Shown here: positions 537 through 40,520 of the stretch, piece by piece
How the letters are laid out: each line of letters begins with the position of its first letter
How positions within the stretch are numbered: position 1 is the stretch's first letter
Assembly (NCBI GenBank): GCA_964526635.1
Contig: CAZGLR010000014.1
Location: 1 to 40,520, forward strand
Direction of reading: 5' to 3'
DNA length: 40,520 bases
DNA from: an uncultured Ignavibacteriales bacterium
Lineage (GTDB): Bacteria > Zixibacteria > MSB-5A5 > GN15 > JAAZOE01
Program-made: the position numbers and the translations under genes
Notes under the pieces: model-generated
Seen by the model: the letters and a program-made list of their open reading frames with translations, nothing else
What the model was told of the DNA's origin: nothing
Databases searched by the model: none

Positions 537-908
537 ATGGCACTCGATGATCCCCGAATCTTTGAACTCCATGCCGGGTTCTGTAAAGTCATCGCCAATT
601 CCAAACGGCTCATGATTGTCTCCCTCCTGGCCGATGGCGAAAAGAGCGTGGGGGAATTGGCTGAGGCCCTGGATTCGCCGCTGGCCAATGTCAGCCAGCA
701 TCTGCGCATCCTCAGGGATCACCACATCGTGACTATCAGGAAAATGGCCCAGACGGTGTACTATCGTCTCACCGACCGGCGGCTCCCCGAAGCCTGTCAG
801 CTTATCCGTACGATTTTGTTGGAAAGCCTGACTCAGCAGGTGGAACTGGCCTGCGACGAAAGCTCGGAACGACAGGTACACCGGATATTTACGAAAAAGG
901 GAAGATGA
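537..908 (+). CDS. ArsR/SmtB-family metalloregulatory transcriptional repressor
   Basis: HTH motif SVGELAEALDSPLANVSQHLRILRD typical of the ArsR family; about 120 aa; ATG at 537 preceded by aaaggat (the track's TTG at 519 is less likely); stop overlaps the next gene's ATG (ATGA at 905-908). Confidence 0.8.
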   Translation: MALDDPRIFELHAGFCKVIANSKRLMIVSLLADGEKSVGELAEALDSPLANVSQHLRILRDHHIVTIRKMAQTVYYRLTDRRLPEACQLIRTILLESLTQQVELACDESSERQVHRIFTKKGR

Positions 909-3460
909 GTATGAATAGAGTTATCGGGTTTCGGATGTTCGCACTCGGGTGTCTGCTGACACTGTTTTTTGCGGCCACACTGCAGGGAGCACACCCACCG
1001 ATCATGCTGCTCGATGCCGAGGGGAATGAGATCAATCCCATCACCGGGGATAACGCCGATCAACCGTTCTCGACGGCGATGACCTGCGGCATTTGTCACG
1101 ATTATGAGACCATCACCGGCGGGTATCATTTTCAAATGGGCTGGGATGTGGTCAGTGATACATTCGGCGTTGTCGATGCCAAACCCTGGCAGATATCCAA
1201 TGGTATGATGGGTAAATGGTGTCCATTATACTTCAGGCAACTGGCCAAAAAAGAAAACGAATCGGCGGACGCTATCGACCTGACCGTCTATGACTTTGTA
1301 GGCTTCTCTGACGGCAATGGCTCGCCATATCCCTGCGGCGCCTGCCATCCCGGCGGCGGCGGTCTGGAGTATGACCGCGAGGGTAACCGGTATGATGAAA
1401 TGATGGCCGAAAATCCGGAACTGGCCGAGACTCTCGATGGTGACTACTATCAAAGCAAGTGGCACGAAAGCGGGGTTGTCGAGGCCGATTGCTTTGTTTG
1501 CCATCTCGATGGCTATGCCTTTGAGGAGCGGACTTATCAACTGGAACAGGGCAACTACAAATGGGCCGTAGTCTCCGGTACCGGCTATGGCATCGTGAGC
1601 GGTTCGGTCAAGCGCGGCCGGGAGCCATCGGTTGTCTATAACACGAAGTTTTTCAATGCCGATGGCACTATCAAACTCGACGTCAGTTGGCCCCCGCCTG
1701 ACAAAAACTGCGTGTTCTGCCATGGTCAGTCCGACAGCCGCAAGCGCGGTTTTTCCTGGAATGATATTCATAACTCCGATGTTCACAACAGCCAGGGTAT
1801 CTCCTGTGCCGCCTGTCATCCCTCCGGACTCGATCATCAATTTGCCAAAGGCAATGCCCGGGCGCTCAATGTGGCCGACCATCTCGACGATACCATGATG
1901 GATTGCAAGGAATGCCATGCCGATGGCTACCTCGGTGCAACCGTCCCGGATCATCATTCAGTCAGGCCGTCGCATCTGGAACGTATCGCTTGTGAAGCCT
2001 GTCATATTCCATCGCTGAACCTGTCGGCTGTTCGAGGCGTGGAATCGGCGACCGGAGAACTCGAATTCACATTCCGACCTGATTCGGTCGATGATTTCGG
2101 TGAATACGGTACCTGGTATCCTGATTATGAACGCTGGATAGAAAAGAAGATTTATCCTTTTAATACGCTGGTGATCAACTGGTGGGGAAACTACCAGGAT
2201 GGTGTTATTTATCCCCTGTTCCTGCGGGAGCAGGAAGCCATCTGGCCGTTGTATGCAGACCGGGTGACCGATGATAACGACGATGGCGACCCCGAAGTCA
2301 ATCGTGGCGAGGAGATTCTGGCCGGAATAGAAGCAACCGCCAGAGGGCTGGACGGCAACCAGCGGTTCAGCGAAATTCACCCGGTTTATGTCAAGGCGGG
2401 TACCGCCTGGCATCTGAATGAAGACGGCGTCCTCGATACGCTGCCGTTTGACGAAGTTACCTGTATTATGTATTCGATCAGTCATAATGTGGCCCCGGCG
2501 CGGTTTGCGCTGGGTGTCAACGGCTGCGGTGATTGCCATGACCATGAGGCGCATTTCTTCAAGGGCCGGCGCGTGCTCGATCTGTATGACTCCACCGGTG
2601 CCGCGGTTACGCGCGGCAATGGCTACTTCTTTGGCTGCAACCCGTTTTCATTTACAATCAATACTTTCCACCAGCAGATTCTCAGCCCGATCGTGAGTAT
2701 ACTCATTATCATTGTCATCTTCCTGGTGATATTGCATTATCACAGTTACGGCCCCAAGCATATACCGTTCATCCCCAATTCCGGTGAAGTGAAGCGGTTT
2801 TCACTGTATGAACGGGGGCTGCACCTGTTTCGCCTGATCTCATTTGTCGTGCTGAGTGTAACCGGTTTGATTATGGCTTTCAATCTCGTTTTGTGGCAGC
2901 AATTGCTGTTTAAATCACCACAGCAGATGCTTGAGTTCCATATCGGTTTCGGCATTGTGTTTTTGATTACCACGATACTGGGAATTGTGTCCTGGTACCG
3001 CGATGCCATCTTCAAGCCGCATGACAGGGAATGGATGAAAAAATTCGGCGGATATCTCGGCCACAAAGGTGAATTCACTTCGGGGCGCTTTAACGCCGGG
3101 CAGAAAATGTTTTACTGGTTTACTTCGATTTCGGGAATTCTGATTTCGGTGACAGGAGTTATTCTGACCTTTAAACCCATTACATCGCTGGCGACAGTCT
3201 GCATTACCTCGACTATCCATAACATCCTCGCTTTCATTATGATTGCCGGTGTTCTGGCCCATGCCTATCTCGGGACGGTGGCCAATCCGGGTACCTGGCG
3301 TGTGCTGGTCGACGGCTTCGTGACACGAATCTGGGCGGAACACCATCATCCGCAATGGTATCGGGAAAAGATGGCCCGCGGCGAAGTGGAAACCTGGGAT
3401 GAGGCTGAAGGTGACCAGAACAATGATCCTGATCCGGAAGCCGGCAAGGCTAATTCGTAA
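905..3460 (+). CDS. Octaheme c-type cytochrome fused to a C-terminal diheme cytochrome b (FdnI/HydC-like) membrane domain; CbcL-like quinone-interacting respiratory cytochrome
   Basis: N-terminal signal peptide; eight CxxCH motifs (CGICH, CGACH, CFVCH, CVFCH, CAACH, CKECH, CEACH, CGDCH); then 4-5 TM helices with conserved His (LHLFRL, EFHIGFG, IHNILAFIMIAGVLAHAYLG) as in the formate-dehydrogenase gamma / Ni-Fe hydrogenase cytochrome b family; 4-nt overlap with arsR. Confidence 0.8.
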   Translation: MSMNRVIGFRMFALGCLLTLFFAATLQGAHPPIMLLDAEGNEINPITGDNADQPFSTAMTCGICHDYETITGGYHFQMGWDVVSDTFGVVDAKPWQISNGMMGKWCPLYFRQLAKKENESADAIDLTVYDFVGFSDGNGSPYPCGACHPGGGGLEYDREGNRYDEMMAENPELAETLDGDYYQSKWHESGVVEADCFVCHLDGYAFEERTYQLEQGNYKWAVVSGTGYGIVSGSVKRGREPSVVYNTKFFNADGTIKLDVSWPPPDKNCVFCHGQSDSRKRGFSWNDIHNSDVHNSQGISCAACHPSGLDHQFAKGNARALNVADHLDDTMMDCKECHADGYLGATVPDHHSVRPSHLERIACEACHIPSLNLSAVRGVESATGELEFTFRPDSVDDFGEYGTWYPDYERWIEKKIYPFNTLVINWWGNYQDGVIYPLFLREQEAIWPLYADRVTDDNDDGDPEVNRGEEILAGIEATARGLDGNQRFSEIHPVYVKAGTAWHLNEDGVLDTLPFDEVTCIMYSISHNVAPARFALGVNGCGDCHDHEAHFFKGRRVLDLYDSTGAAVTRGNGYFFGCNPFSFTINTFHQQILSPIVSILIIIVIFLVILHYHSYGPKHIPFIPNSGEVKRFSLYERGLHLFRLISFVVLSVTGLIMAFNLVLWQQLLFKSPQQMLEFHIGFGIVFLITTILGIVSWYRDAIFKPHDREWMKKFGGYLGHKGEFTSGRFNAGQKMFYWFTSISGILISVTGVILTFKPITSLATVCITSTIHNILAFIMIAGVLAHAYLGTVANPGTWRVLVDGFVTRIWAEHHHPQWYREKMARGEVETWDEAEGDQNNDPDPEAGKANS

Positions 3461-30115: not shown

Positions 30116-31738
30116 TTACCCTGTCTTCTCTTCGGAGGTTGCGTCTAAGGCATTGGCCATCATATCCTCGGTCTTGATCCCGGCTTTTTTCAGGAGGTCA
30201 CCGACATCTATTCCGGCGGCTTTGGCCTGCTCCAGAAACTGGAACAGCATGGTTGGTCCGATTTTCGAAAAACGGTTCAAAGCGCTGTCATCTTTGCCGT
30301 TACCGCCGCTATCGACGACCACCAGTTTATCGATATTACCCATTGGAGCGGCAATCGATCCAAACACCGACCCGAGAGCCTGTATGGCTTGCGGCAGGAC
30401 TTTTAGAACTTCAAGTGTCAAAGCCGCTTCATTGAATTGCTGATAGGCTTTGGCGAGTTCGTTAATGGAGACAGCTTTGGCCAGTCCCTGTTTTTCAATG
30501 ACGTCGGCCTCTGCCAGACCCTTGCTCTGGGTGATTTCGGCTTCAGCCAAACCGGTGGCCTTTGTCGCAGCCGCCATACCTTCACCTTCAGCCTTGCGTT
30601 TATGCTGTTCAGCATCGGCCCGGGCGATAGTGGCGTATTTGTCGCCTTCGGCTTTTGCCTGCTGGGCTACCCGATAGCCCTCGGCTTCCTTGACACTGGC
30701 ATCAGCCTTGGCTTTGGCGGGTACCACGATCACCGCTTCCTGCGATTTTTGTTCTCGCAGAATGTTTTGCTCTTCTACTTCGATCTGGGCACGTGAACGT
30801 TCTTCCTCGATTTTAACCTCGGCAATGATGACCTTTTGCTTCTGCTCGGCGGTTGAGAGGGGACCGGCCTGATCGGTGACGGCCGTTTCGCGGGCAATCT
30901 CCGCCTGGTATATCTGCTTGGCAACCTGGGTGTTTTTTTGCGCTTCAGCCTCGAGCCGTTCATTTTCCTGGGCAACCACTTCGGCTGCCCGTTCGGCATC
31001 GGTGGCCCGCTTTTTGGCTTCAGCCAGTGCCTCGGCCTCGCCGATTGCGGCATCACGCTTGACTTCGGCAGTACGCTTTTTACCAAGGGCTTCGATATAG
31101 CCCAACTCGTCAGTAATAGACTGCGGGTTGAACACGTCTATCTGCATACCGAGTCGGGACAAATCTTCACCGGCTTCGCCCAGTACTTTCTGCCGAAAGG
31201 CGTCACGGTCTTTGATCAACTGATCGACTGTCAGGGTTCCGACCACACCGCGTAAGTTGGATTCAAGTGTTTCCCGTGCGACACTTTGTACATTTTCGTG
31301 TGACATGCCGAGGAACCGGGCTCCGGCCGCCAACAGGGATTGCGCGTCATCCTTGAAACGGATATTGGCCACCGCCTCCACCGTGACCAGCACGCCATCT
31401 ATATTAGGCATATTTTTGACAAAAATCTGAGGCAGTGAAATTTCGGTCAGATCAAGGAATTCGACCGCTTCAATAATCGGTTTGCGAATGCGGCCGCCAC
31501 CGGTAACGACCACTGTCCCGGGAGGGAGAACCGTAACGGTGGCCTCATCCGGACCTCCGATTTTTGCAATTTTCTGAATCCCCTTTTTGCCGCTTTTGGC
31601 GCCATAGAAAAAGGCCGCCTTATTCGGAGGGACCCGAACGTAATAGGCTGCCAACGCTTTGACCAATACAAAAAGTGCAATTATTGCGGCCAACCCAATC
31701 GCCGGCCAAATTAAAGTCCCAATTATTTCTTCAGACAT
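30116..31738 (-). CDS. Flotillin-family SPFH/band-7 protein (FloT/YuaG-like)
   Basis: N-terminal TM helix; SPFH domain then long Ala/Glu/Lys/Gln-rich coiled-coil (EA repeats) typical of flotillins; RBS GGAGGG. Confidence 0.85.
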   Translation of the reverse strand: MSEEIIGTLIWPAIGLAAIIALFVLVKALAAYYVRVPPNKAAFFYGAKSGKKGIQKIAKIGGPDEATVTVLPPGTVVVTGGGRIRKPIIEAVEFLDLTEISLPQIFVKNMPNIDGVLVTVEAVANIRFKDDAQSLLAAGARFLGMSHENVQSVARETLESNLRGVVGTLTVDQLIKDRDAFRQKVLGEAGEDLSRLGMQIDVFNPQSITDELGYIEALGKKRTAEVKRDAAIGEAEALAEAKKRATDAERAAEVVAQENERLEAEAQKNTQVAKQIYQAEIARETAVTDQAGPLSTAEQKQKVIIAEVKIEEERSRAQIEVEEQNILREQKSQEAVIVVPAKAKADASVKEAEGYRVAQQAKAEGDKYATIARADAEQHKRKAEGEGMAAATKATGLAEAEITQSKGLAEADVIEKQGLAKAVSINELAKAYQQFNEAALTLEVLKVLPQAIQALGSVFGSIAAPMGNIDKLVVVDSGGNGKDDSALNRFSKIGPTMLFQFLEQAKAAGIDVGDLLKKAGIKTEDMMANALDATSEEKTG

Positions 31739-31762
31739 GATATTCCCTCCGTTGTACTATTT

Positions 31763-32278
31763 TCATTGAATCTTTTCGACTGTGACTATGTTTCCGGTTT
31801 TACCGACAATTTTGACCACCGCACCCTTGTTGATTGACTCGCCGCTACTCGATCGCGCCAGAAAAGTAAATTCTCTGCCACGGACAATGCAGGAGACCTG
31901 CCCCGTCGCGCCATTATCGATCATATCGATTAAATTTGCTGTTTGGCCAATAATATCTGAATCACCAATAGTTGAACTTGCCTGGCTGCCGTAAAACATG
32001 CGCAGTATAAAGTACCCCATAGTGCAAAGGACTAATGCTCCCGCGACTCCGGTCAGGGAGGATTGAAGCATGCTAAAATCGGTTGTGGCTCGAATCCCAA
32101 ACCCGGTGCCACCGAAGCCGACCATTAGCAGCGCAAACATCTTAACGCTGAAGATGCTGGGACCATGACCAACATCGGCGTCAACGTCGACATCAAAATC
32201 GGCATCGGCATCGCCGAAAACAAGGCTGATAAGGAGAATGATAAAACCCAGGCCGAATATTAGCGCAAAGATAAGCAT
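31763..32278 (-). CDS. NfeD-family membrane protein (YuaF-like, C-terminal OB-fold)
   Basis: ATG 32278 with GGGGAGGA RBS; two TM segments then a soluble beta-rich C-terminus; immediately upstream of flotillin as in nfeD-floT operons. Confidence 0.7.
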   Translation of the reverse strand: MLIFALIFGLGFIILLISLVFGDADADFDVDVDADVGHGPSIFSVKMFALLMVGFGGTGFGIRATTDFSMLQSSLTGVAGALVLCTMGYFILRMFYGSQASSTIGDSDIIGQTANLIDMIDNGATGQVSCIVRGREFTFLARSSSGESINKGAVVKIVGKTGNIVTVEKIQ

Positions 32279-32660
32279 TGTATCCTCCCCGATTCTTATT
32301 CTGAATTGATATACTGTGGATATAGCGAAAAATTCAATTTTTTGCGACAATAATATAACAACCGATATCGGGGGGCGGCGATTTTTTCATTTCCCCCGGC
32401 AACATCGCCTTACCGTAATCCTGATCAGAATATTTTCATGGTCGTTTTTGTCAGGCTATGTCGATAGTTACTTGTCACCGGCCCGGGGCTTGGGGCCGAT
32501 AGGAAAATAAAGATCGGCACTAAAGTCAGCTCTTTTGAGTAATGCCCAATCTGTTTTGCAAAATTTCTTCTTTTGTAGATAGATTAATTACCGTCTATAA
32601 AATTTGATTTATATAAAGGAGATAATTGCTAATTGAGGCATTGGTTTATATACTGTCCTT

Positions 32661-33992
32661 GTGGATACTGAGTTCAACAGCACGACCGAGATTATTCTTA
32701 ACAGTATTGCCGATGGCGTCTTCACCGTCGACAATCAATGGCGCATCCGGTCATTCAATCGGGCCGCCGAAATCATCACCGGTATAAGTCGGGAAGAGGC
32801 TGTCGGGAGGCGTTGTTGTGACATCTTCCGGGCATCGATCTGCGAAAGCTCCTGCGCCCTGCGCCAGACCATGACTACCGGGACCAACATCCTCAACAAA
32901 ATCGTCTATATCATCAACAGCGATGGTGACCAGATACCGGTCAGTATCTCGACGGCGCTGCTCAAGGATAACGACGGCCGCGTGATTGGCGGGGTCGAGA
33001 CCTTCCGCAATCTCAGTGATATCGAACGACTGCGCCGTCAGCTCGAAAAACAATACACGTTCCAGGACATAATCAGCAAACATCCCCGTATGCTCGAGCT
33101 GTTTGATCTGCTCCCGGGGATCGCGGAAAGCGACAGCAGTGTGGTGATCCAGGGCGCCAGCGGCACCGGAAAGGAACTTGTCGCCAGGGCTATCCATGAT
33201 CTCTCGCGCCGCCGCAAAGGGCCGTTTATCGCCATTAATTGCGGGGCGCTGCCCGATACCCTGCTTGAGGCCGAGCTTTTTGGCTATAAAAAGGGCGCAT
33301 TCACCGACGCCCGCACCGACAAACCCGGGCGATTTGCCCAGGCCGAGAAGGGGACGTTGTTTCTCGATGAAATCAGCGATATCTCGCCAGCCATGCAATC
33401 GCGCCTTTTGCGCGTCCTCGAGAATAAAACATATGAACCGCTCGGGGCAACCGCCAGCGAAACAGCTAATGTGCGCATTATCGCCGCAACCAATAAACCG
33501 CTGTCCAAACTGATCGCCTCCGGCACCTTCCGGGAAGATCTGTTTTATCGCATTAATGTCATGGAAATCAGCCTGCCTCCGCTCAAAGAGCGGCGCGGGG
33601 ATATTCCCCTGCTGGTGAGCCATTTTGTAAACCATTTCAATACCATGACCGCCAAAAATATAAATGATATTTCCCCGGCCGCCCTGGAAACCCTGATGAA
33701 TCATGATTACCCCGGCAATATCCGGGAATTACAGAATATTATTGAACATGCCTTTGTCGTAAACCGAAAAGGCATTATCGAAACCGCCGACTTGCCCGGC
33801 CATCTTTTGCCGGAAAAAAAACTGCATTCTTCCGAGCCTCAAACGCTTGATGAACTCGAAGCAAAACTCATCAGCAATGTCCTTCGTCGCAATGATTGGA
33901 ATCGGGCCCGGGCCGCGGCCGAACTGGGTATTCATCCCACGACGTTATGGCGTAAGATCAAAAAACTCGGGATCACAACCCCCAATTCATAG
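32661..33992 (+). CDS. Sigma-54-dependent transcriptional activator with N-terminal PAS sensor domain and C-terminal Fis-type HTH
   Basis: AAA+ sigma54-interaction motifs GASGTGKELVARAIH, GAFTDA (GAFTGA variant), ELFGY; C-terminal NRARAAAELGIHPTTLWRKIKKLGI; no receiver domain. Confidence 0.85.
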   Translation: MDTEFNSTTEIILNSIADGVFTVDNQWRIRSFNRAAEIITGISREEAVGRRCCDIFRASICESSCALRQTMTTGTNILNKIVYIINSDGDQIPVSISTALLKDNDGRVIGGVETFRNLSDIERLRRQLEKQYTFQDIISKHPRMLELFDLLPGIAESDSSVVIQGASGTGKELVARAIHDLSRRRKGPFIAINCGALPDTLLEAELFGYKKGAFTDARTDKPGRFAQAEKGTLFLDEISDISPAMQSRLLRVLENKTYEPLGATASETANVRIIAATNKPLSKLIASGTFREDLFYRINVMEISLPPLKERRGDIPLLVSHFVNHFNTMTAKNINDISPAALETLMNHDYPGNIRELQNIIEHAFVVNRKGIIETADLPGHLLPEKKLHSSEPQTLDELEAKLISNVLRRNDWNRARAAAELGIHPTTLWRKIKKLGITTPNS

Positions 33993-34139: not shown

Positions 34140-34155
34140 CGGCAAGCCTTTTGCT
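34140..34155 (+). promoter_or_regulatory. Putative sigma-54 (-24/-12) promoter cGGCAAgccttTTGCT
   Basis: GG and GC correctly spaced versus consensus TGGCAC-N5-TTGC; immediately upstream of the NifX-like operon and downstream of a sigma-54 activator gene; leader to ATG 34172 is unusually short. Confidence 0.4.
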
Positions 34156-34171
34156 TTTATGTTACAACGTT

Positions 34172-34582
34172 ATGGAAAGGGTTGCAATTCCGCTATATAA
34201 TGGACGGGTATCGCCGGTCTTCGATACCGCCACACAGGTTCTGGTCGCTGCCTGTGGCGCTCGCCAGTATTACATCGAAAAGACACTGAGTCTCAAGACA
34301 TCAGATCCGGCCCAACGGTGCCGTTGTCTTGCCGAAAACGGCATCACGGTCATTCTTTGCGGTGGGATATCCCGGCGATTTCTGGCCTATTTACGGAAGT
34401 ACAATATTGTTGTTCATTCTTTTTTAAGCGGGCCGATACCGCAGATCCTGAGAACGTATGTTCGTGATTTTGAACATCTCCAGGATCATCGCCAAATCAG
34501 GCAACGTCCACAGCATCATCGCCGGCGACGAACGGGACATCGGATGCAGCCGCCATCTCAGAAAAAAATGGAGTCGAAATGA
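34172..34582 (+). CDS. NifX/NifB-C-like (dinitrogenase FeMo-cofactor-binding family) domain protein 1
   Basis: MERVAIPLYNGRVSPVFDTATQVLV...ENGITVILCGGIS matches the Nitro_FeMo-Co family pattern; Arg/His-rich tail may indicate an uncertain 3-prime end or a frameshift. Confidence 0.55.
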   Translation: MERVAIPLYNGRVSPVFDTATQVLVAACGARQYYIEKTLSLKTSDPAQRCRCLAENGITVILCGGISRRFLAYLRKYNIVVHSFLSGPIPQILRTYVRDFEHLQDHRQIRQRPQHHRRRRTGHRMQPPSQKKMESK

Positions 34583-34944
34583 AAATTGCTGTTTCAGCTC
34601 AACAGGATTCATTGTCCAGTCCGGTCGATCCGCGGTTTGGCCGGGCCCCGTTTTTCATCATTTATGATACCGACACCGATTCGCACGAAATTATCTCGAA
34701 TGCGGAAAATGTAACGGCCGGGCAGGGTGCCGGCATCCAGGCGGTCCAATTGGTGGCGGGTCATAATGTTGAAATGGTCATTTCCGGCCGCGTCGGTCCC
34801 AAGGCATTCGTGGCGCTTGGCACCGCCGGCATCAGGGTTGCCTCATGGCAGCAGGGCACGGTTTCCGAGGCTATCGATCTGGCCCGGGATAACCGACTTG
34901 AATTTATCAACCAGGCCAATGCCGCGGCTCATTGGCAGCAATAA
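34579..34944 (+). CDS. NifX/NifB-C-like domain protein 2
   Basis: MKIAVSAQQDSLSSPVDPRFGRAPFFIIYDTDT...QLVAGHNVEMVISGRVGPKA family pattern; RBS tggag; 4-nt overlap with the upstream ORF. Confidence 0.7.
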   Translation: MKIAVSAQQDSLSSPVDPRFGRAPFFIIYDTDTDSHEIISNAENVTAGQGAGIQAVQLVAGHNVEMVISGRVGPKAFVALGTAGIRVASWQQGTVSEAIDLARDNRLEFINQANAAAHWQQ

Positions 34945-34969
34945 GCTATATACGGGAGGTGAGTACCAC

Positions 34970-35251
34970 GTGACACCTGACAGCACCAGAGGCGGCCGAC
35001 GATTTCGACTGCGCGGGAATAAGGCGGTGCGCAACAGCGGACTGACTCTTCTGGCTACGTCAATTGTATCGGCCATTACCTACGATCTCAAACAGCCGGA
35101 CAGTATCGTACGCGGCCTGATTGGATCCGGGTATCGCGCGCTTAAATCGCTGGCTGCCCCTCGCCGGGGTCAGGATGTTTCTGATCTGGTGGACGTTACC
35201 GACGTTGCCCCGGCTGAAATTATTGAAGATGAATCGAAGCGAAAGGAGTAA
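34970..35251 (+). CDS. Small hypothetical protein (GTG start, about 93 aa)
   Basis: Fills a 310-nt gap inside the operon; GGGAGGTGA RBS 9 nt before GTG 34970; acidic C-terminus; no family recognised. Confidence 0.3.
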   Translation: MTPDSTRGGRRFRLRGNKAVRNSGLTLLATSIVSAITYDLKQPDSIVRGLIGSGYRALKSLAAPRRGQDVSDLVDVTDVAPAEIIEDESKRKE

Positions 35252-35255
35252 CACC

Positions 35256-35615
35256 ATGCCAGGAGGAGATCGTACCGGACCATTGGGTGCCGGACCATTA
35301 ACCGGTCGAGGCGCCGGCTTTTGCCGTGGCGCCGGGCAACCGGGTTTTTATACTCGCGGTGGTCGCGGCCGGGGTGTCAACCGTCCTTTCGGCGGTCGTG
35401 GTGGTCGCCGGCGCGGCGATTTCTACTATCAACCTGATGCCGTCGGATGGACCCGCGGCAGTGGCGAACCGATTATGGCGGCGGCAGACGCGGCGTATCA
35501 GGACGAAAATACCGGTCTGCAGCAGCAAATTGACAATTTGACCAAAACGGTCGAAGCACTCGGCAGCCGGGTAAAGCAATTGCTGCGGAAGGACACCAAA
35601 GATGATGCAAAGTAA
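35256..35615 (+). CDS. DUF5320-like Gly/Arg-rich protein with C-terminal coiled coil
   Basis: AAAGGAG RBS; N-terminus MPGGDRTGPLGAGPLTGRGAGFCRGAGQPGFYTRGGRGRG resembles the MPRGDGTGPxGxGPxTGRG signature of DUF5320 proteins that accompany MinD-ferredoxin/NifX-like clusters; C-terminal helix QQQIDNLTKTVEALGSRVKQLL. Confidence 0.6.
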   Translation: MPGGDRTGPLGAGPLTGRGAGFCRGAGQPGFYTRGGRGRGVNRPFGGRGGRRRGDFYYQPDAVGWTRGSGEPIMAAADAAYQDENTGLQQQIDNLTKTVEALGSRVKQLLRKDTKDDAK

Positions 35616-35853
35616 AGGACGCGGCGGCGGCCAGGGACAGGGCGGTGGTCGCGGTCAGGGACAGGGCGGTGGTCGCGGCCAGGGCCAGGGACGTGGTCAG
35701 GGTCAGGGACGCGGCGGCGGGCCGAATATGCAGCGCGGACCCGGGGGTGAGTGTATCTGCAATAACTGCGGTGCGATCGTCCCGCATGAACCCGGTGTTC
35801 CCTGCATGGATCAGACCTGCCCGAAATGCGGCGGGACGATGGTAAGGAAGTAA
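35602..35853 (+). CDS. Gly/Arg/Gln-rich low-complexity protein with C-terminal 4-Cys zinc ribbon
   Basis: Overlaps the upstream stop by 14 nt; GRGQGQGGGRGQGQGGGRGQGQGRGQGQGRGGG then CICNNCGAIVPHEPGVPCMDQTCPKCGG. Confidence 0.55.
   Translation: MMQSKGRGGGQGQGGGRGQGQGGGRGQGQGRGQGQGRGGGPNMQRGPGGECICNNCGAIVPHEPGVPCMDQTCPKCGGTMVRK
35632..35720 (+). repeat. Imperfect tandem DNA repeat (about 24-nt unit ggacagggcggtggtcgcggtcag, about 3.5 copies) encoding (GRGQGQGG)n
   Basis: Read directly from the sequence. Confidence 0.8.
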
Positions 35854-35867
35854 CGCGGAACGACTGC

Positions 35868-36716
35868 ATGAGAATAGCCTTTGCCAGTGGAAAGGGTGGT
35901 ACCGGTAAGACAACGCTGGCCACCAATTTGACAGCATGGCTCGCTGATCAGGGCGAGACAGTTTGCTATGCCGACTGCGATGTGGAAGAACCTAACGGGC
36001 ATATTTTTCTCAAACCGGAGATTGAGGACACCATTGACGTGACTGTCCCGATTCCGGTAATAGACGCAGAGGCCTGTGATGCCTGCGGCGAATGTGTGAC
36101 GCATTGTCAGTTCAATGCCATAGCTCTTTTGGGCAAAACTGTCGCAGTTTTCCCAACACTCTGCCACAGTTGCGGGGTGTGCAGTGCCATCTGTCCTCAG
36201 CAGGCGATTACTGAATCATCCCGGTCGCTTGGCACGATTACTATCGGTCGCGGCCGTGGCGCTGGTGTGTATACCGGGCGTCTGACGGTTGGCGAAGCGC
36301 TGGCCCCGCCGGTCAGCAGAGCGCTGAAAAGCCTGTTACCCGATGACGGCACCATAATTATCGATGCTCCGCCGGGCACGTCCTGTCCCGTGATTGAAGC
36401 GGTAACCGGATGTGACTATCTGGTATTGGTAACCGAACCGACACCGTGCGGCCTCCATGATCTCTGTCTGGCCCTTGAGATGGCGGGAAAGCTCCATCTG
36501 CCCTGTGGTGTCGTGATAAATAATGACGATGGCGACCCCGATACGGAAGTCGCGATCGCCTCCAGGGGCGCAGAAATTCTACAGACTATCGCATATCAGC
36601 CGCATCTGGCCCGAAAGTATTCCGAGGGACACATGTTGATCGATGCTGATCCGGGCTATGCCTGGAAGATGAAACATCTCTATGGCAAAATAACACGGGC
36701 GGTGGCGCATGGCTGA
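35868..36716 (+). CDS. MinD/ParA-superfamily P-loop ATPase with inserted 2x[4Fe-4S] ferredoxin domain (COG1149-type)
   Basis: Deviant Walker A SGKGGTGKTT; CDACGECVTHCQFNAI and CHSCGVCSAICPQQAI CxxCxxCxxxCP clusters. Confidence 0.85.
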   Translation: MRIAFASGKGGTGKTTLATNLTAWLADQGETVCYADCDVEEPNGHIFLKPEIEDTIDVTVPIPVIDAEACDACGECVTHCQFNAIALLGKTVAVFPTLCHSCGVCSAICPQQAITESSRSLGTITIGRGRGAGVYTGRLTVGEALAPPVSRALKSLLPDDGTIIIDAPPGTSCPVIEAVTGCDYLVLVTEPTPCGLHDLCLALEMAGKLHLPCGVVINNDDGDPDTEVAIASRGAEILQTIAYQPHLARKYSEGHMLIDADPGYAWKMKHLYGKITRAVAHG

Positions 36717-37635
36717 GATGGTCTTTATCAGTGGCAAAGGGGGGACCGGGAAGACCACTGTGTGTGCCAGTCTGGGGCATCTTCCTGAATCCTGTGTGCT
36801 GACAGACTGCGATGTGGATGCAGCCAATTTGCATCTGCTGGTCAACTACAACACCAAAGAAACACATGATTTTTCCACCAGTGCGGTGGCGTCGATCGAT
36901 CAGACTGCCTGCGATTCCTGCGGGCTGTGTTTTGATTTGTGTCGTTTTTCGGCCATCAGCCGTACCTATAAATCCGATGTACCGGGAAAATATGAATACC
37001 GCGTGGAGCCGCTTGCCTGTGAGGGCTGCGGTATGTGCCGTTACATGTGCCCGCAAAAGGCGGTTGAACTGAAACCGGTACGCAGCGGCCAGTGGTTTAT
37101 CTCCGAAACCGAGCGCGGGCCGTTTTATCATGGCCGCCTTGATATCGCTCAGTCCAATTCCGGCCGCCTGGTTTCTCTGCTGCGCAAAAAGGCACAGGAA
37201 GCCGCGCGCGTCTCGAACATCCCGCTGCTGCTCACCGATGGTCCTCCGGGGATTGGCTGCCCCGTAATTGCATCAATAACCGGCGCCGACCTGGTCGTGG
37301 CTGTTTCGGAACCATCGCGCTCGGCCTTTCATGATCTGCAACGGATTGTTGAGTTGACGACATTTTTCTCGCTCCCGGCGGTCGTGTGTATTAACAAATA
37401 CGATATCAATCCAGAAATCTCCCGTCACATCGAGGAATTCGCGCAGGAACATCATCTGCCGGTTGTAGCCAGGTTGCGCGTTGACCGGGCAGTGATCGAC
37501 GCCCAGCGAACCGGGCGACCGTATCTCGATGTTGCGATCGACTATAACCGTCGCGAATTGATTAAAATGTGGAATACAGTAATTGATCGATTGCCTGACC
37601 TCAATGGCACCAGGCAACGGCGTTTTGCCGTCTGA
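36709..37635 (+). CDS. Second MinD/ParA-type ATPase with inserted 2x[4Fe-4S] ferredoxin domain
   Basis: SGKGGTGKTT; CDSCGLCFDLCRFSAI and CEGCGMCRYMCPQKAV; 8-nt overlap with the upstream paralog. Confidence 0.85.
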   Translation: MAEMVFISGKGGTGKTTVCASLGHLPESCVLTDCDVDAANLHLLVNYNTKETHDFSTSAVASIDQTACDSCGLCFDLCRFSAISRTYKSDVPGKYEYRVEPLACEGCGMCRYMCPQKAVELKPVRSGQWFISETERGPFYHGRLDIAQSNSGRLVSLLRKKAQEAARVSNIPLLLTDGPPGIGCPVIASITGADLVVAVSEPSRSAFHDLQRIVELTTFFSLPAVVCINKYDINPEISRHIEEFAQEHHLPVVARLRVDRAVIDAQRTGRPYLDVAIDYNRRELIKMWNTVIDRLPDLNGTRQRRFAV

Positions 37636-37664
37636 TGAAAATGAATGAAATGGAGAAGACAACA

Positions 37665-38048
37665 ATGAAAATAGCCATCCCTACCGAAAACGGCCGGCTG
37701 TGCGCCCATTTCGGACACAGCCCGCAGTTTACCCTGGTCGATGTCAACGCTGATACCGGCCTGATAGAAAACAGGTCAACGATGACTCCACCGCCGCATG
37801 ACCGTGGTGTCCTCCCGGCCTGGCTGCGCGAGCTCGGGTGCACGCACATCATTGCCGGTGGTATGGGCGGTCGGGCGCTGACGCTTTTTGCCCAGCAGGG
37901 CATCGAAGTAGTGTGTGGGGTCGGTGAGTCGGATATTGACGACATTATCGCAGCTTTTTTTGCCGGCACGCTGGCGACTGATAACAATCCCTGCAGTGAT
38001 CCCTCGTTTCATGCGGGGGGGCATACTGATTGCGAGCATCGTCATTAG
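37665..38048 (+). CDS. NifX/NifB-C-like domain protein 3 with Cys/His-rich C-terminal extension
   Basis: MKIAIPTENGRLCAHFGHSPQFTLVDV...HIIAGGMGGRALTLFAQQGIEVV; tail NPCSDPSFHAGGHTDCEHRH; RBS ggagaag. Confidence 0.7.
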   Translation: MKIAIPTENGRLCAHFGHSPQFTLVDVNADTGLIENRSTMTPPPHDRGVLPAWLRELGCTHIIAGGMGGRALTLFAQQGIEVVCGVGESDIDDIIAAFFAGTLATDNNPCSDPSFHAGGHTDCEHRH

Positions 38049-38133
38049 ATGCCGCCGGTTGATGAACAAATAGTGACACTTACAACCTGTGCCGGTCTTT
38101 ATGGTCGGCGTAAGGAATAGATGGAAAGCAACT

Positions 38134-39588
38134 ATGCGAACAGATCCGATCTCTGAAGAACAACGTAAGACGGCTTTTGCGGCCACCAAAAAGCCGGATG
38201 TGATGGAGCGGCAAAAGCTGGCGGTGCGATATCATGTCGAGGATTACGATATTGCCGACCGGCCACGGAAATTTCTGGAGGCCTTTGCCGCAATTTTGCG
38301 GCATACCAATTATCGTTTTGCTCTGGATCATTTCGCGCGGGTCTCGGCAAAGTGCGCCCGATGTTCGGTCCAGTGCCCGGTGTATCAGGCGACCGATGAT
38401 GTCACCGACATCCCCTGCCATCGATCTGAATTGCTGCTGAAGGTCTATAAACGGCACTTTACCCTGGGCGGTATGTTCCAGGGCCGCCTGACCGGCAGTG
38501 GCCACCTGACCGACAGCGATATCGAAGAGATGGCCGACTCGTTCTGGAATTGCACCGCCTGCCGGCGCTGCACGCTGGAATGCCCGGTCGGCATCGATCA
38601 TGCCCTGATTACCCATCTTGGCCGTTTCATCCTCAGCGAAATTGGTATTGCCCCCCGGGCGCTGGTCGTCAGTACCCGTGAACAGCTCGAAGGTAAAACC
38701 GGTAACACTTCGGCTATACCGCTGCCGGCCCTGGTCGATACCCTCGAATTTCTTGAAGAGGATATGAAAGAGGAAAAGGGCGTCGATATTAAATTCCCGC
38801 TCGATGTCGATGGCAGCGAATACCTCTTTATGCCGGCGGTCTCCGATTTTTTGATGGAGGCCGAGACCCTGATGGGTATCGCAGCTGTCTTTGCCGCCAC
38901 CGGCGGTTCCTGGACAATCAGCACGGAATACTTCGATGCAATCAACTACGGCCTCTTTTACAATGATCGCATTCTTGAACGGGTCATTCGCAAGCTGTAT
39001 GCCGAATCCGAGCGGCTGCATACCAGGGCTATACTGATCGGTGAATGCGGCCATGCTTCGCGTACGGCCAAATATTTCGTGCCGGTGCATTGCGGTGGCG
39101 ATAAAGCCAGGCCCGTGTTGAATATCATGGAATACACATATCGCATGCTGAAAGAAGGCAAACTCAAACTCGATCCCAACGTGATCACCGAACGGGTGAC
39201 ATATCACGATCCTTGCAACATCGCCCGTCAGGGCTGGGTCGTTGACCAGCCGCGTGAGATTATCCGGGCTTTCTGCAAAGACTTTGTTGAGATGACCCCG
39301 CGCCGTACCGAAAACATCTGTTGCGGTGGCGGTGGCGGATCGGTATCGATCGATGAAATCCGTCCCTATCGCACGACGATCGGCGGCAAGGCCAAGGCCG
39401 ACCAAATTCGTAACACCGGCGCCAGGTACGTTATTGCGCCATGCGCCAACTGCAAAAAGCAATTGCGGGAACTGGTCGAAGATCAGCGAATCGACTGCGA
39501 AGTCATCGGGCTGCATGATCTGATCTACAAAGCAATTATTTTCGATACTGTCCCGCAGCCATCACCCGAAACCGTGGAGAAAGGATAA
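38134..39588 (+). CDS. HdrD/DsrK/GlpC-like Fe-S oxidoreductase with CCG domain
   Basis: Cys clusters CARCSVQCP and CTACRRCTLECP; CCG-domain signature HDPCNIARQG...ICCGGGGGS...APCANCKKQL; start at ATG 38134 preferred. Confidence 0.75.
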   Translation: MRTDPISEEQRKTAFAATKKPDVMERQKLAVRYHVEDYDIADRPRKFLEAFAAILRHTNYRFALDHFARVSAKCARCSVQCPVYQATDDVTDIPCHRSELLLKVYKRHFTLGGMFQGRLTGSGHLTDSDIEEMADSFWNCTACRRCTLECPVGIDHALITHLGRFILSEIGIAPRALVVSTREQLEGKTGNTSAIPLPALVDTLEFLEEDMKEEKGVDIKFPLDVDGSEYLFMPAVSDFLMEAETLMGIAAVFAATGGSWTISTEYFDAINYGLFYNDRILERVIRKLYAESERLHTRAILIGECGHASRTAKYFVPVHCGGDKARPVLNIMEYTYRMLKEGKLKLDPNVITERVTYHDPCNIARQGWVVDQPREIIRAFCKDFVEMTPRRTENICCGGGGGSVSIDEIRPYRTTIGGKAKADQIRNTGARYVIAPCANCKKQLRELVEDQRIDCEVIGLHDLIYKAIIFDTVPQPSPETVEKG

Positions 39589-39591
39589 CCA

Positions 39592-40296
39592 GTGCAGGAG
39601 ATACTCGATTTTTGCCGCGGCCCGCTGTTCCGATTTTCCTTTTTACTTATGGTCTTCGGACTGCTCCGCATCCTGGTCCTTGATATCTGGCAGGCGTTGA
39701 TCGCATGGCGCCGGGCCGGGGACAAGCGACTTGCGTGGAAGTCGGCGACAGTCAATACTTTACACTGGCTGTTTCCGATTAAAAAGACGTTTACCCGAAA
39801 ACCGGTCTATAGCCTGGTTTCTATATTGTTTCACGTCGGCTTGATCACTGTCCCGATTTTTCTGGCCGCTCATATTACACTCTGGCACGAGAGTACCGGT
39901 ATCAGATGGTGGGCCATGCCGCACAGCCTGGCTGACTGGCTGACGATCTCCACGATTGTCTTTGCCCTGACCTTGTTTGCCTGGCGGGTGCTCAGCCGTG
40001 ATGCCCGCTTTCTCAGCCGCAGCCAGGACTATCTTTGGCCGATTTTGCTGAGTATCCCGTTTATTACCGGCTATGCCTGCGTCAATACCGCTTTGAGTGC
40101 GCGAGCGTATGAATTCAGTATGCTGCTGCATGTGCTGTCGGCGAACCTGATTTTCGTCATGATACCGTTTTCGAAAATCGCCCATTGTGTCATCCAGCCG
40201 TTGTCGCAATTCATGCTGGCCCTGGCCTGGAAATTCCCGGCCCGCATCGATGATAAAATTGCCACGACTCTCAAGAAGAAAGGAGCGCCGGTATGA
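39592..40296 (+). CDS. NarI/DsrM/HdrE-like integral membrane cytochrome b
   Basis: 5 TM helices with conserved His (LFHVGLITVPIFLAAHITLWH, LLHVLSANLIFVMIPFSKIAH), as in nitrate-reductase gamma-like subunits that pair with HdrD/DsrK. Confidence 0.65.
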   Translation: MQEILDFCRGPLFRFSFLLMVFGLLRILVLDIWQALIAWRRAGDKRLAWKSATVNTLHWLFPIKKTFTRKPVYSLVSILFHVGLITVPIFLAAHITLWHESTGIRWWAMPHSLADWLTISTIVFALTLFAWRVLSRDARFLSRSQDYLWPILLSIPFITGYACVNTALSARAYEFSMLLHVLSANLIFVMIPFSKIAHCVIQPLSQFMLALAWKFPARIDDKIATTLKKKGAPV

Positions 40297-40520
40297 AGGC
40301 TATCCTGACTGATGTCACCAAATGTATCGGCTGCCGGGAATGTGTTGTCGCATGTAAGGAAAAGCATAACCTCGAAACCGATGTCCCGCGGTTGTTTCAT
40401 CGCACCGATGGCCTGTCGGCCTCAAACTGGACGTCGATTCTGCAGCGCCCCGATGAGCGCTATATCCGCAAGCAGTGCCGTCATTGTATCGAGCCGGGTT
40501 GTGTCTCGGCCTGTCCGGTC
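40293..40520 (+). CDS. 4Fe-4S ferredoxin-type iron-sulfur subunit (DsrO/HybA/DmsB-like), 5-prime partial at window end
   Basis: ATGA overlap with the upstream gene; CIGCRECVVAC and CRHCIEPGCVSACP cluster motifs; continues beyond the window. Confidence 0.7.
   Translation, partial: MKAILTDVTKCIGCRECVVACKEKHNLETDVPRLFHRTDGLSASNWTSILQRPDERYIRKQCRHCIEPGCVSACPV

Follow-up and report, generated by a model that had tools for sequence, protein, structure and literature searches.

Here we describe the three genes at the end of a 40,520-nucleotide stretch of DNA (the window; contig CAZGLR010000014.1 of an uncultured bacterium of the Zixibacteria lineage). These genes, called K, M and O, very probably encode part of a transmembrane complex of the Hmc/Tmc/Dsr superfamily with the composition K-M-O-P::c, in which P::c is a membrane protein fused to a multihaem cytochrome c, encoded by the next gene in relatives. 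The explanation that we favour as a whole, that the window ends in a truncated K-M-O-P::c operon for an Hmc/Tmc-like complex with a role in Dsr-type sulfur redox chemistry, has in our estimate a probability of about 0.6. The three genes in the window are:

K, 38134..39588, + strand: 484 aa; cytoplasmic DsrK/HmcF/TmcB-type CCG iron-sulfur protein with Pfam domains CCG and Fer4_8
M, 39592..40296, + strand: 234 aa; TmcC/HmcE/NarI-type di-haem cytochrome b with 5 transmembrane (TM) helices
O, 40293..40520, + strand: first 76 codons of an HmcB/HybA/FdnH-like four-cluster ferredoxin, cut by the window end

The genes are co-directional and closely packed: M starts with GTG 3 nucleotides (nt) past the stop codon of K, and the start of O overlaps the stop of M (ATGA). 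Judging by thousands of K homologues at 66-84% identity, K, M and O are real genes and not a chance pattern. An earlier reading of the window, made from the letters alone (the sequence-only reading), had recognized a CCG protein, a His-rich cytochrome b with five TM helices and a ferredoxin in the order K-M-O, and had assigned them to a quinone-linked membrane redox complex of the HdrDE, DsrMK(JOP) or Hmc kind at the end of an operon. The three proteins and their order are borne out by Pfam and NCBIfam matches and by the cofactor ligands. The kind of complex also holds, in a non-canonical form in which the subunits score below family cut-offs. The "operon end", however, does not: position 40520 is the end of the contig, since relatives carry a fourth gene, P::c, further on.

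K is a member of the CCG-domain, or HdrD-type, iron-sulfur (Fe-S) superfamily, as both its CCG domain (PF02754; 46.0 bits, cut-off 20.6) and its N-terminal dicluster ferredoxin domain (Fer4_8; 39.8 bits, cut-off 27) score above the Pfam gathering thresholds. Its matches to the NCBIfam models DsrK (289.9 bits, cut-off 400), TmcB (213 bits, cut-off 735) and HmcF (201 bits, cut-off 750) are all below cut-off. Sixteen cysteines of K are invariant (74, 77, 81, 95, 140, 143, 146, 150, 305, 320, 361, 381, 396, 397, 437 and 440); the invariance of cofactor ligands, here and for the 4 His of M, the 16 Cys of O and the six CXXCH motifs and six further His of P::c, was judged over 68-82 sequences. Two [4Fe-4S] motifs fit C74/77/81/95 and C140/143/146/150. 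One CCG motif is complete, CX34CCGX39CXXC, formed by C361, C396, C397, C437 and C440, and C305 sits in a GECGH motif (G-E-C305-G-H307); both are invariant in 28-82 family members. This complete motif is the C-terminal one, while the N-terminal CCG motif is reduced to GECGH and HCGG. A single complete CXnCCGXnCX2C motif, which binds one noncubane cluster, together with a T/GECGH cysteine, is the signature of DsrK, HmcF and TmcB, unlike HdrD and HdrB, which have two CCG motifs (Barbosa et al., PMC10861901). K thus carries the signature of the DsrK/HmcF/TmcB group. HdrDE was rejected as the identity of the complex, because its catalytic subunit needs two complete CCG motifs and K has one.

K is a soluble protein of the cytoplasm, and no TM helix is predicted in it. 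The only sequence match of K in the PDB is 9ojn, the EtfD protein of Mycobacterium smegmatis (E = 1e-12; Foldseek E = 6e-12; about 20% identity), and the match spans both the ferredoxin and the CCG domains. EtfD is also among the best fold matches of the AlphaFold2 model of K (pLDDT 70), along with LutA and HdrB. The database protein P0001 is identical to K and has the same ATG start as was chosen in the sequence-only reading. An open reading frame (ORF) of 478 aa antisense to K (38080-39516, - strand) is a shadow of K rather than a gene, since homology is confined to the product of the + strand.

M most resembles TmcC (120 bits, cut-off 240) and HmcE (111 bits, cut-off 275) among NCBIfam models; its match to QmoC is far weaker (16.9 bits, cut-off 300; E = 0.003). 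Against Pfam Nitrate_red_gam (PF02665) it scores 18.2 bits (cut-off 22.9), and many of its orthologues carry PF02665. Four histidines, His81 and His94 in TM2 and His180 and His198 in TM5, are all invariant, and in this pattern we recognize the arrangement of NarI, which would put one haem near the periplasmic and one near the cytoplasmic face of the membrane. Hydropathy and the positive-inside rule place the N-terminus of M outside and its C-terminus inside, with the long Lys/Arg-rich loop 1 and the C-terminal tail in the cytoplasm. NarI is the top fold match of M in the PDB, albeit a weak one (TM-score about 0.47, E about 0.1); a sequence search of the PDB with M gave no match.

The context past the contig end was taken from homologues and from a genome scan (the M protein had no exact match in the assembly index). 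Homologues of K at 72-84% identity belong to Zixibacteria metagenome-assembled genomes (MAGs). In four loci where K is 79-84% identical to that of the window (L163, L164, L001 and L002), O, of 250-256 aa, is followed through an overlapping stop and start by a protein of 618-633 aa. In this protein, P::c, an NrfD-family membrane domain is joined to a C-terminal class III cytochrome c domain that has six CXXCH motifs. Next in line are genes for a response regulator, a PAS histidine kinase and one or two additional response regulators. The P part aligns from end to end with HmcC (244 bits, cut-off 550) and HybB (240 bits, cut-off 450), and scores 35 bits against DsrP (cut-off 350). It has ten helices that obey the positive-inside rule, with both ends predicted in the cytoplasm, and an eleventh helix leads to a periplasmic hexahaem domain. 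That domain is of c3 type, contains six further conserved His besides the CXXCH motifs, and weakly matches the nine-haem and sixteen-haem cytochromes of Desulfovibrio.

A scan of genomes, one per GTDB species, found at least 576 stretches with relatives of the module; in the best 80 of them K is 66-83% identical to K of the window. Submitters labelled these 80 as Zixibacteria/GN15, Ignavibacteria/Melioribacteraceae/"Bacteroidetes", Kryptonia, LCP-89, Eisenbacteria, Lentisphaerales and Acidobacteriota (Bryobacterales, Terriglobia, Solibacteraceae). Genes were mapped in 81 distinct loci, and counts are given per loci with enough sequence. M is present in 81/81 loci with room for it, O in 75/75, the P::cytochrome fusion in 70/70 and the two-component system in 52/66. 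Because of the counts for M, O and P::c, we regard K-M-O-P::c as one invariant module. Clustering of 4636 neighbouring ORFs, all against all, revealed no other universally conserved neighbour beyond K, M, O, P::c, the two-component system, and an activator and a NifX-like protein of 250 aa (both described below). The family as a whole comprises thousands of protein clusters at 90% identity. In a library clustered at 50% identity, the next full-length relatives of K are only 39-46% identical, and eight of the nine that were scanned (P0125-P0146) are DsrK-like proteins below threshold.

Within the window, the O subunit opens with CxxCxxCxxxC and reaches into a second cluster motif; among families it is most similar to DmsB, HybA and HmcB. 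In full-length orthologues 16 Cys are invariant, which suffices for four clusters, and a TM helix at the C-terminus runs into KRR or RR; these orthologues score 244 bits against HmcB (cut-off 420), 213 against HybA (cut-off 263) and 101 against DsrO (cut-off 200), and match FdnH in the PDB with E = 5e-37. A signal peptide is absent from O in 78 of 78 loci, in most of which the frame leaves 10-25 residues before the first Cys motif. The missing part is the signal-peptide region itself, because alignments start at positions 37-45 of the HmcB, HybA, DsrO and NrfC profiles. A hidden signal peptide or a start further upstream was considered and rejected, as the long frames seen where GC content is high are M read out of frame and rich in Arg and Pro. 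FdnH is carried to the periplasm by FdnG, but no such partner with a twin-arginine translocation (Tat) signal is encoded in or near the operon, according to the clustering of neighbouring ORFs. Homology would place O in the periplasm, because P has the canonical orientation and O has a C-terminal anchor followed by KRR, and we consider a periplasmic position of its iron-sulfur domain somewhat more probable than a cytoplasmic one. Either a partner for O is encoded elsewhere, or O faces the cytoplasm; a signal-less O may do so, which would be a topology unlike the canonical one of NrfD-type modules. Which way O faces, and with it the path of the electrons, is uncertain.

Because every subunit scores below the curated NCBIfam cut-offs, K-M-O-P::c is not a canonical Dsr, Hmc or Tmc complex. 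It is a separate variant of the Hmc/Tmc/DsrMKJOP superfamily, distinct from canonical Dsr, Hdr and Qmo. Its composition is that of HmcABCDEF: HmcF corresponds to K, HmcE to M, HmcB to O, HmcC to P and HmcA, a multihaem cytochrome of the c3 family, to the c domain, and in both cases regulatory genes are attached to the operon. This set (a CCG protein, a cytochrome b, an FeS protein, an NrfD-type protein and a multihaem cytochrome c) is found in 70/70 relatives, and the window shows K, M and the start of O. In NCBIfam, O is matched best by HmcB and P by HmcC, and HmcE is the second best for M. However, the family scores remain low (HmcF 201/750, HmcE 111/275, HmcB 244/420 and HmcC 244/550, as bits/cut-off), the order of the module is F-E-B-C whereas that of Hmc is A-B-C-D-E-F, and six haems are fused to the NrfD subunit by an extra helix instead of sixteen residing in a separate HmcA. 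In addition, the module has no HmcD, its O lacks a signal peptide, and its hosts belong to phyla of the FCB group (the Fibrobacterota-Chlorobiota-Bacteroidota superphylum and relatives) and to Acidobacteriota rather than to Desulfobacterota.

With TmcABCD the module shares the succession of a CCG protein and a cytochrome b (TmcB-TmcC corresponding to K-M), and TmcC is the best NCBIfam match of M. The response regulators downstream of the module best match the NCBIfam "DVU0259 family"; DVU0259 itself presumably adjoins the tmc operon. In contrast, Tmc has no FeS/NrfD pair, its TmcA is a separate tetrahaem cytochrome, and the scores are 213/735 for TmcB and 120/240 for TmcC. No TmcA- or TmcD-like genes were recognized among the conserved neighbours, the search having been made without a reference sequence for TmcD.

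DsrMKJOP, a menadiol:DsrC-trisulfide oxidoreductase (PMC10861901), likewise has two modules, joining a quinone-interacting cytochrome b and a CCG catalytic subunit to an FeS protein, an NrfD-type protein and a cytochrome c, and DsrK is the curated model closest to K, with the same catalytic motifs. The gene order is nevertheless K-M and not M-K, and M matches no model of the Dsr complex. The trihaem DsrJ, with its His/Cys ligation, is a separate protein, whereas the relatives of our module have a c3-type domain with six CXXCH motifs fused to P. O and P score 101/200 against DsrO and 35/350 against DsrP, and DsrO has its own signal peptide, which O has not. QmoABC was rejected on the score of M against QmoC (16.9/300) and because QmoA- or QmoB-like genes neither occur in the window nor recur near the module.

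The half formed by O and P::c resembles NhcABCD and Geobacter Cbc4 (CbcSTU) in combining an FeS protein, an NrfD-like protein and a membrane-attached multihaem cytochrome c. Neither of them, however, has the cytochrome b and CCG module, and in both the cytochrome is a polypeptide of its own; genes of NhcC type have been counted in a few Acidobacteria, Bacteroidetes and Chlorobi (Calisto and Pereira, PMC8076601). EtfD differs from K-M in being a single fused polypeptide, in which the CCG part is joined to a membrane cytochrome b module. It passes electrons from ETF to menaquinone, has no periplasmic module, and thiol/disulfide chemistry is not known for it.

The link to sulfur metabolism comes from the neighbourhood of the module in other lineages. 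Pfam scans of 20 large upstream ORFs and the cluster genes revealed no dsrAB, apr, qmo or hdrABC in the window, which for dsrAB, aprAB and hdrABC confirms the sequence-only reading, and no dsrC was found there either. Elsewhere, dsrA or dsrB lies within 10 kb of the module in 13 of the 81 loci, all of them from lineages other than Zixibacteria, and in many of these loci dsrN, dsrL or dsrC is also present. In a Kryptonia locus (L051), where K scores 274.7 bits against DsrK, genes for DsrA (589 bits, cut-off 393), DsrB (520 bits, cut-off 342) and a DsrN-like, CobB-homologue amidase lie directly downstream of the module and share its strand. The usual layout in Ignavibacteria and Kryptonia is K-M-O-P::c, an optional insert (response regulator, histidine kinase, response regulator, a DsrMK-like pair, response regulator), a zinc-ribbon protein of 375 aa, and dsrA-dsrB-dsrN-dsrL. 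Eight more loci extend as far as the zinc-ribbon gene but show neither dsrA nor dsrB; where that gene lies at the edge of the flank (for example L031 and L067), dsrAB may be located just past the fetched sequence. In three Acidobacteria loci (L041, L065 and L077) dsrA-dsrB-dsrL-dsrC precede the module, with a DsrC of 106 aa that ends in ...PKPTGCV. The dsr genes of the Eisenbacteria locus L024 have a divergent orientation. Seven loci, two of them from Zixibacteria, have beside the module a flavoprotein that resembles CoA-disulfide reductase and carries a rhodanese domain; Eisenbacteria and Acidobacteria loci are also represented (identified: L020, L024, L029, L041, L057 and L078).

Canonical DsrK (728 bits, cut-off 400) and DsrO (295 bits, cut-off 200) lie between dsrC and the module in L041, and because of this coexistence we take the module to be additional to DsrMKJOP. 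Hmc and Tmc accompany DsrMKJOP in Desulfovibrio in the same manner. The module is therefore best described as a second, Hmc/Tmc-like complex of dsr-bearing FCB-group and Acidobacteriota lineages, found in the same metabolic neighbourhood as DsrMKJOP. In the converse direction, metagenome contigs were scanned with DsrB: the majority of dsr loci of this type have the canonical DsrK and DsrO, and two more, divergent K-M-O-P::c modules came to light directly upstream of dsrA (L091 and L096). In a tree of K the dsr-linked copies are scattered among the others; since the tree did not separate them, it offers no subfamily split by which function could be transferred or withheld. Beyond the classical sulfate reducers, dsrAB of the reductive type has been reported in the same phyla that the module occurs in, namely Acidobacteria, Ignavibacteria, Zixibacteria and LCP-89 (PMC6018805, PMC8477390, PMC10591310). 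For Zixibacteria MAGs in particular, reductive dsrB (PMC9769843) and, in some, complete dsr loci have been reported.

Three further observations concern these dsr regions. The 375-aa protein between the module and dsrA (L051 6060-7187, L061 15410-16537 and 15 other Ignavibacteria/Kryptonia loci) has an IS1-type N-terminal zinc ribbon and is no obvious transposase. In L031 (16900-19555) and nine similar Ignavibacteria loci, a pair of a NarI-like protein (337 aa) and a DsrK-like protein (341 bits, below cut-off) stands between the two-component system and the dsr genes; it is probably the "dsrM-2/dsrK-2" reported for Ca. Thermonerobacter. In L135 (5361-21069; metagenome contig Ga0316576_10000166) a sigma-54 activator with a GAYTDA loop and a perfect TGGCACACGGGTTGCA promoter are followed by a membrane protein and dsrA-dsrB-dsrL-dsrN-dsrC-dsrK-dsrO, an operon that looks sigma-54-dependent; response regulators and an O/P pair that is more distant are found upstream.

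How the complex would work can be outlined by analogy with its relatives. The hexahaem domain would exchange electrons with periplasmic carriers, and O and P would link it to the menaquinone pool. The b haems of M may carry electrons across the membrane to the clusters of K, where the noncubane cluster and Cys305 would reduce a protein-bound tri- or disulfide. The most likely substrate of K would be a carrier of DsrC type, as for DsrK, and for this organism we give a DsrC-like substrate an even chance. Reverse flow could occur in sulfur-oxidising or -disproportionating organisms.

In the window the module is preceded by genes that resemble those of the ORP (orange protein) complex. The relevant features are:

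32661..33992, + strand: sigma-54 enhancer-binding protein (PAS, AAA+ and helix-turn-helix domains) with a GAFTDA loop, of the Orp-regulator type; likely regulator
34140..34155, + strand: sigma-54 -24/-12 element CGGCAAGCCTTTTGCT, found by pattern scan, with the probable start of the first NifX-like gene (34172) about 17 nt further on
34172..38048, + strand: orp-like gene block, defined by NCBIfam and Pfam matches
38019..38034, + strand: candidate sigma-54 -24/-12 element GGGCATACTGATTGCG in the 3' end of the NifX-like gene that precedes K, about 100 nt before K

The block encodes two NifX/Di-Nase proteins, a DUF5320 protein, a protein of 83 aa that is rich in Gly and has a Cys motif at its C-terminus, and a pair of MinD-type ATPases, each carrying two [4Fe-4S] motifs, which resemble the Orp3/Orp4 ATPases of the ORP complex (PMC6345978). 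Its last protein, a third one with a Di-Nase domain, resembles the C-terminal domain of MrpORP, with CxHFGH and C-terminal C-E-H motifs. The GAFTDA loop, a rare variant, is also carried by DVU2106, the regulator of the orp operons of D. vulgaris (PMC4641369). The likeness to the ORP complex concerns these upstream genes only (Orp3/Orp4-like ATPases, Orp8/MrpORP-like Di-Nase domains, the activator and the promoter), and it is incomplete: the orp genes of Desulfovibrio form two divergent operons, and the window has no full-length MrpORP (Mrp/NBP35 plus Di-Nase). The element at 34140 is the probable promoter of an operon running into K-M-O; its distance to the start codon means a very short leader, and the same spacing is seen in relatives. 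The element at 38019 is weaker and suggestive only, a possible promoter, with about 0.06 chance matches expected in the 540 nt scanned. No terminator-like site was found in the 85-nt gap between the last orp-like gene (38048) and K (38134), and the orp-like block and K-M-O are probably in the same transcription unit or co-regulated in the window.

Among the relatives this arrangement is atypical. At 37 loci (32 of those 73 that extend at least 1.2 kb upstream), labelled mostly Zixibacteria, with some Ignavibacteria and one LCP-89, a sigma-54 activator with GAFTDA and then a Di-Nase protein of 250 aa stand directly upstream of K; in the window this second activator and the 250-aa gene are absent, and K directly follows the orp-like genes. 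A sigma-54 element lies just upstream of the NifX-like 250-aa gene in 22/35 loci, compared with 1/43 upstream of K in loci without that gene, the chance expectation being 0.05 per region. We take the module in Zixibacteria to be under the sigma-54 control of an Orp-type activator. ATPases of Orp3/Orp4 type are found upstream in only 3 of the 53 loci with at least 8 kb of upstream sequence. Full orp-like clusters occur upstream in L001, L002 and L018 and downstream in L039. Across the family, the orp link is an exception, whereas sulfur-metabolism neighbours recur across phyla. The 250-aa protein itself (L001 9200-9949, L002 9186-9962 and 35 further loci) combines a Di-Nase domain at its N-terminus with a C-terminal domain that has invariant C155, C158, C167, C168, C207 and H242 (CPxC...CCG...C) and is covered by no Pfam family.

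From the absence of dsrAB, aprAB and mvh/hdrABC in the window, the sequence-only reading had concluded that the complex may serve the upstream cofactor/ATPase module rather than canonical sulfur or methanogenic metabolism. Spelled out, the complex would be the membrane redox partner of the ORP-like metallocluster/ATPase module and exchange electrons with the Di-Nase proteins independently of Dsr. The uninterrupted passage from the orp-like block into K, the activator, promoter and 250-aa protein at 37 loci, with the element tied to that gene, the four full orp-like clusters and the absence of dsr genes within 10 kb of Zixibacteria-type loci all speak for such a link. Yet the Orp3/Orp4-type ATPases are rare upstream, and all Acidobacteria and many Ignavibacteria and Kryptonia copies have no Di-Nase neighbour while their K is still 66-75% identical. 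The only metabolic neighbours that recur across phyla are the dsr genes and the CoA-disulfide-reductase/rhodanese gene, K bears the thiol/disulfide catalytic signature of DsrK, and the papers on ORP (PMC6345978, PMC4641369) neither describe a membrane complex attached to it nor show a link to one. We consider this explanation improbable, and hold equally small the chance that it applies just to Zixibacteria lacking dsrAB and dsrC, where K-M-O-P::c would be the redox partner of Orp-type cluster proteins and the 250-aa Di-Nase protein (here the orp-like proteins) the substrate or acceptor of K. A role in Dsr-type sulfur redox chemistry is more likely than service to the upstream module. The earlier proposal thus fails as it was stated, given that the module is autonomous in 81 loci, that the ATPases seldom accompany it and that dsrAB adjoins it elsewhere. 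A part of it survives: co-regulation with Di-Nase proteins is plausible, because an Orp-type activator, a sigma-54 promoter and a NifX-like gene precede the module in Zixibacteria-type loci and, in the window, no terminator-like site interrupts the gap before K. By the terms of the sequence-only reading, downstream genes completing a standard DsrMKJOP or Hmc operon with dsrAB nearby would speak against the proposal, and this is half the case: relatives do complete an Hmc-like set, and dsrAB is near it in other phyla, but not in the Zixibacteria relatives.

A role outside sulfur metabolism altogether is unlikely, if somewhat less easily dismissed: the complex could be a quinol:cytochrome c or cytoplasm-periplasm conduit, comparable to Nhc, Geobacter Cbc4 and CbcL, with K as a point of electron entry or exit in the manner of EtfD, for instance in extracellular electron transfer. 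This would agree with the NhcABC/Cbc4 composition of the O and P::c half, with EtfD, an electron-transfer protein, being the closest solved structure to K, with a CbcL-like fusion of multihaem c and cytochrome b in the window (905-3460), and with Mtr-type cytochromes reported in Zixibacteria (PMC3903129, PMC9769843). However, with its invariant Cys in GECGH and its complete CCG motif K looks made for thiol/disulfide catalysis, dsr adjacency recurs in at least four lineages, and neighbour-ORF clustering found no outer-membrane conduit genes recurring beside the module. That the complex is simply the canonical DsrMKJOP of the organism in a rearranged gene order is highly improbable. DsrK is the best NCBIfam match of K, one automatic JGI name for a family member is "[DsrC]-trisulfide reductase subunit K", the component types (K, M, O, P and cytochrome c) correspond, and dsrAB is adjacent in 13 loci. 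Against this, K (290 against 400), O (101 against 200 for DsrO) and P (35 against 350 for DsrP) all fall far short of their cut-offs; among membrane-anchor families M matches TmcC and HmcE and otherwise only, and weakly, QmoC; and a fused hexahaem c3-type domain takes the place of the trihaem DsrJ. Canonical DsrK and DsrO serve most dsr loci of this type and coexist with the module in L041, by which this identity is already contradicted.

The Dsr-type sulfur role that we favour has to contend with several points. In the window there is no P::c gene, as the contig ends after 76 codons of O, and dsrAB, dsrC, apr and qmo are missing as well. The roughly 37 Zixibacteria-type loci are all free of dsr genes within 10 kb. 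EtfD, LutA and GlpC are CCG proteins but not disulfide reductases, and it is EtfD that comes closest to K among solved structures. O lacks a signal peptide throughout, although its homologues are periplasmic, and the operon offers no Tat-signal partner. With all subunits below the cut-offs for Dsr, Hmc and Tmc, function is transferred from paralogues and not from orthologues. The taxon labels of the loci are those of the MAG submitters, and the tree of K was built by neighbour-joining and carries no support values.

The building blocks of the module are all of known kinds, and it is their combination that is new relative to curated families and the open-access literature: the K-M-O-P order, the fusion of NrfD to a hexahaem domain, an FdnH-like O without a signal peptide, an attached two-component system and very high conservation across phyla, to which FCB lineages add an attached Orp-type sigma-54 activator and Di-Nase protein. 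We found no description of this architecture in these phyla in the open-access literature, and none that combines Hmc/Tmc, Acidobacteriota and dsrAB. Work on complexes of Hmc/Tmc type has been confined almost entirely to Desulfovibrio, and the substrate on their cytoplasmic side is still a presumed one. A related but architecturally distinct complex is widespread and strongly conserved in recently recognized dsr-bearing lineages outside Desulfobacterota (Zixibacteria, Ignavibacteria, Kryptonia, LCP-89 and Acidobacteriota). Among the 240 best matches listed there is no cultured carrier and no informative name; public names are generic ("(Fe-S)-binding protein", "Fe-S oxidoreductase", "nitrate reductase gamma subunit"), and for this reason metabolic reconstructions of these phyla probably overlook a major route of electrons from periplasm to cytoplasm, or score it wrongly as DsrK or NarI. 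Orp-type sigma-54 control together with Di-Nase proteins provides a testable handle on both systems, and the ORP-partner explanation, if true, would tie the functionally obscure orange-protein system to the respiratory chain.

Two other regions of the window may be mentioned. The 851-aa protein encoded at 905-3460 (+ strand) has multihaem cytochrome c domains (Cytochrome_C7, MtrC/MtrF-like) fused to a C-terminal cytochrome b561/Ni_hydr_CYTB domain, an architecture that it shares with the CbcL-type quinol oxidoreductases of Geobacter. Divergent from the sigma-54 activator lies an ordinary pair of genes for SPFH/Band 7 and NfeD-like proteins (30116-32350, - strand).

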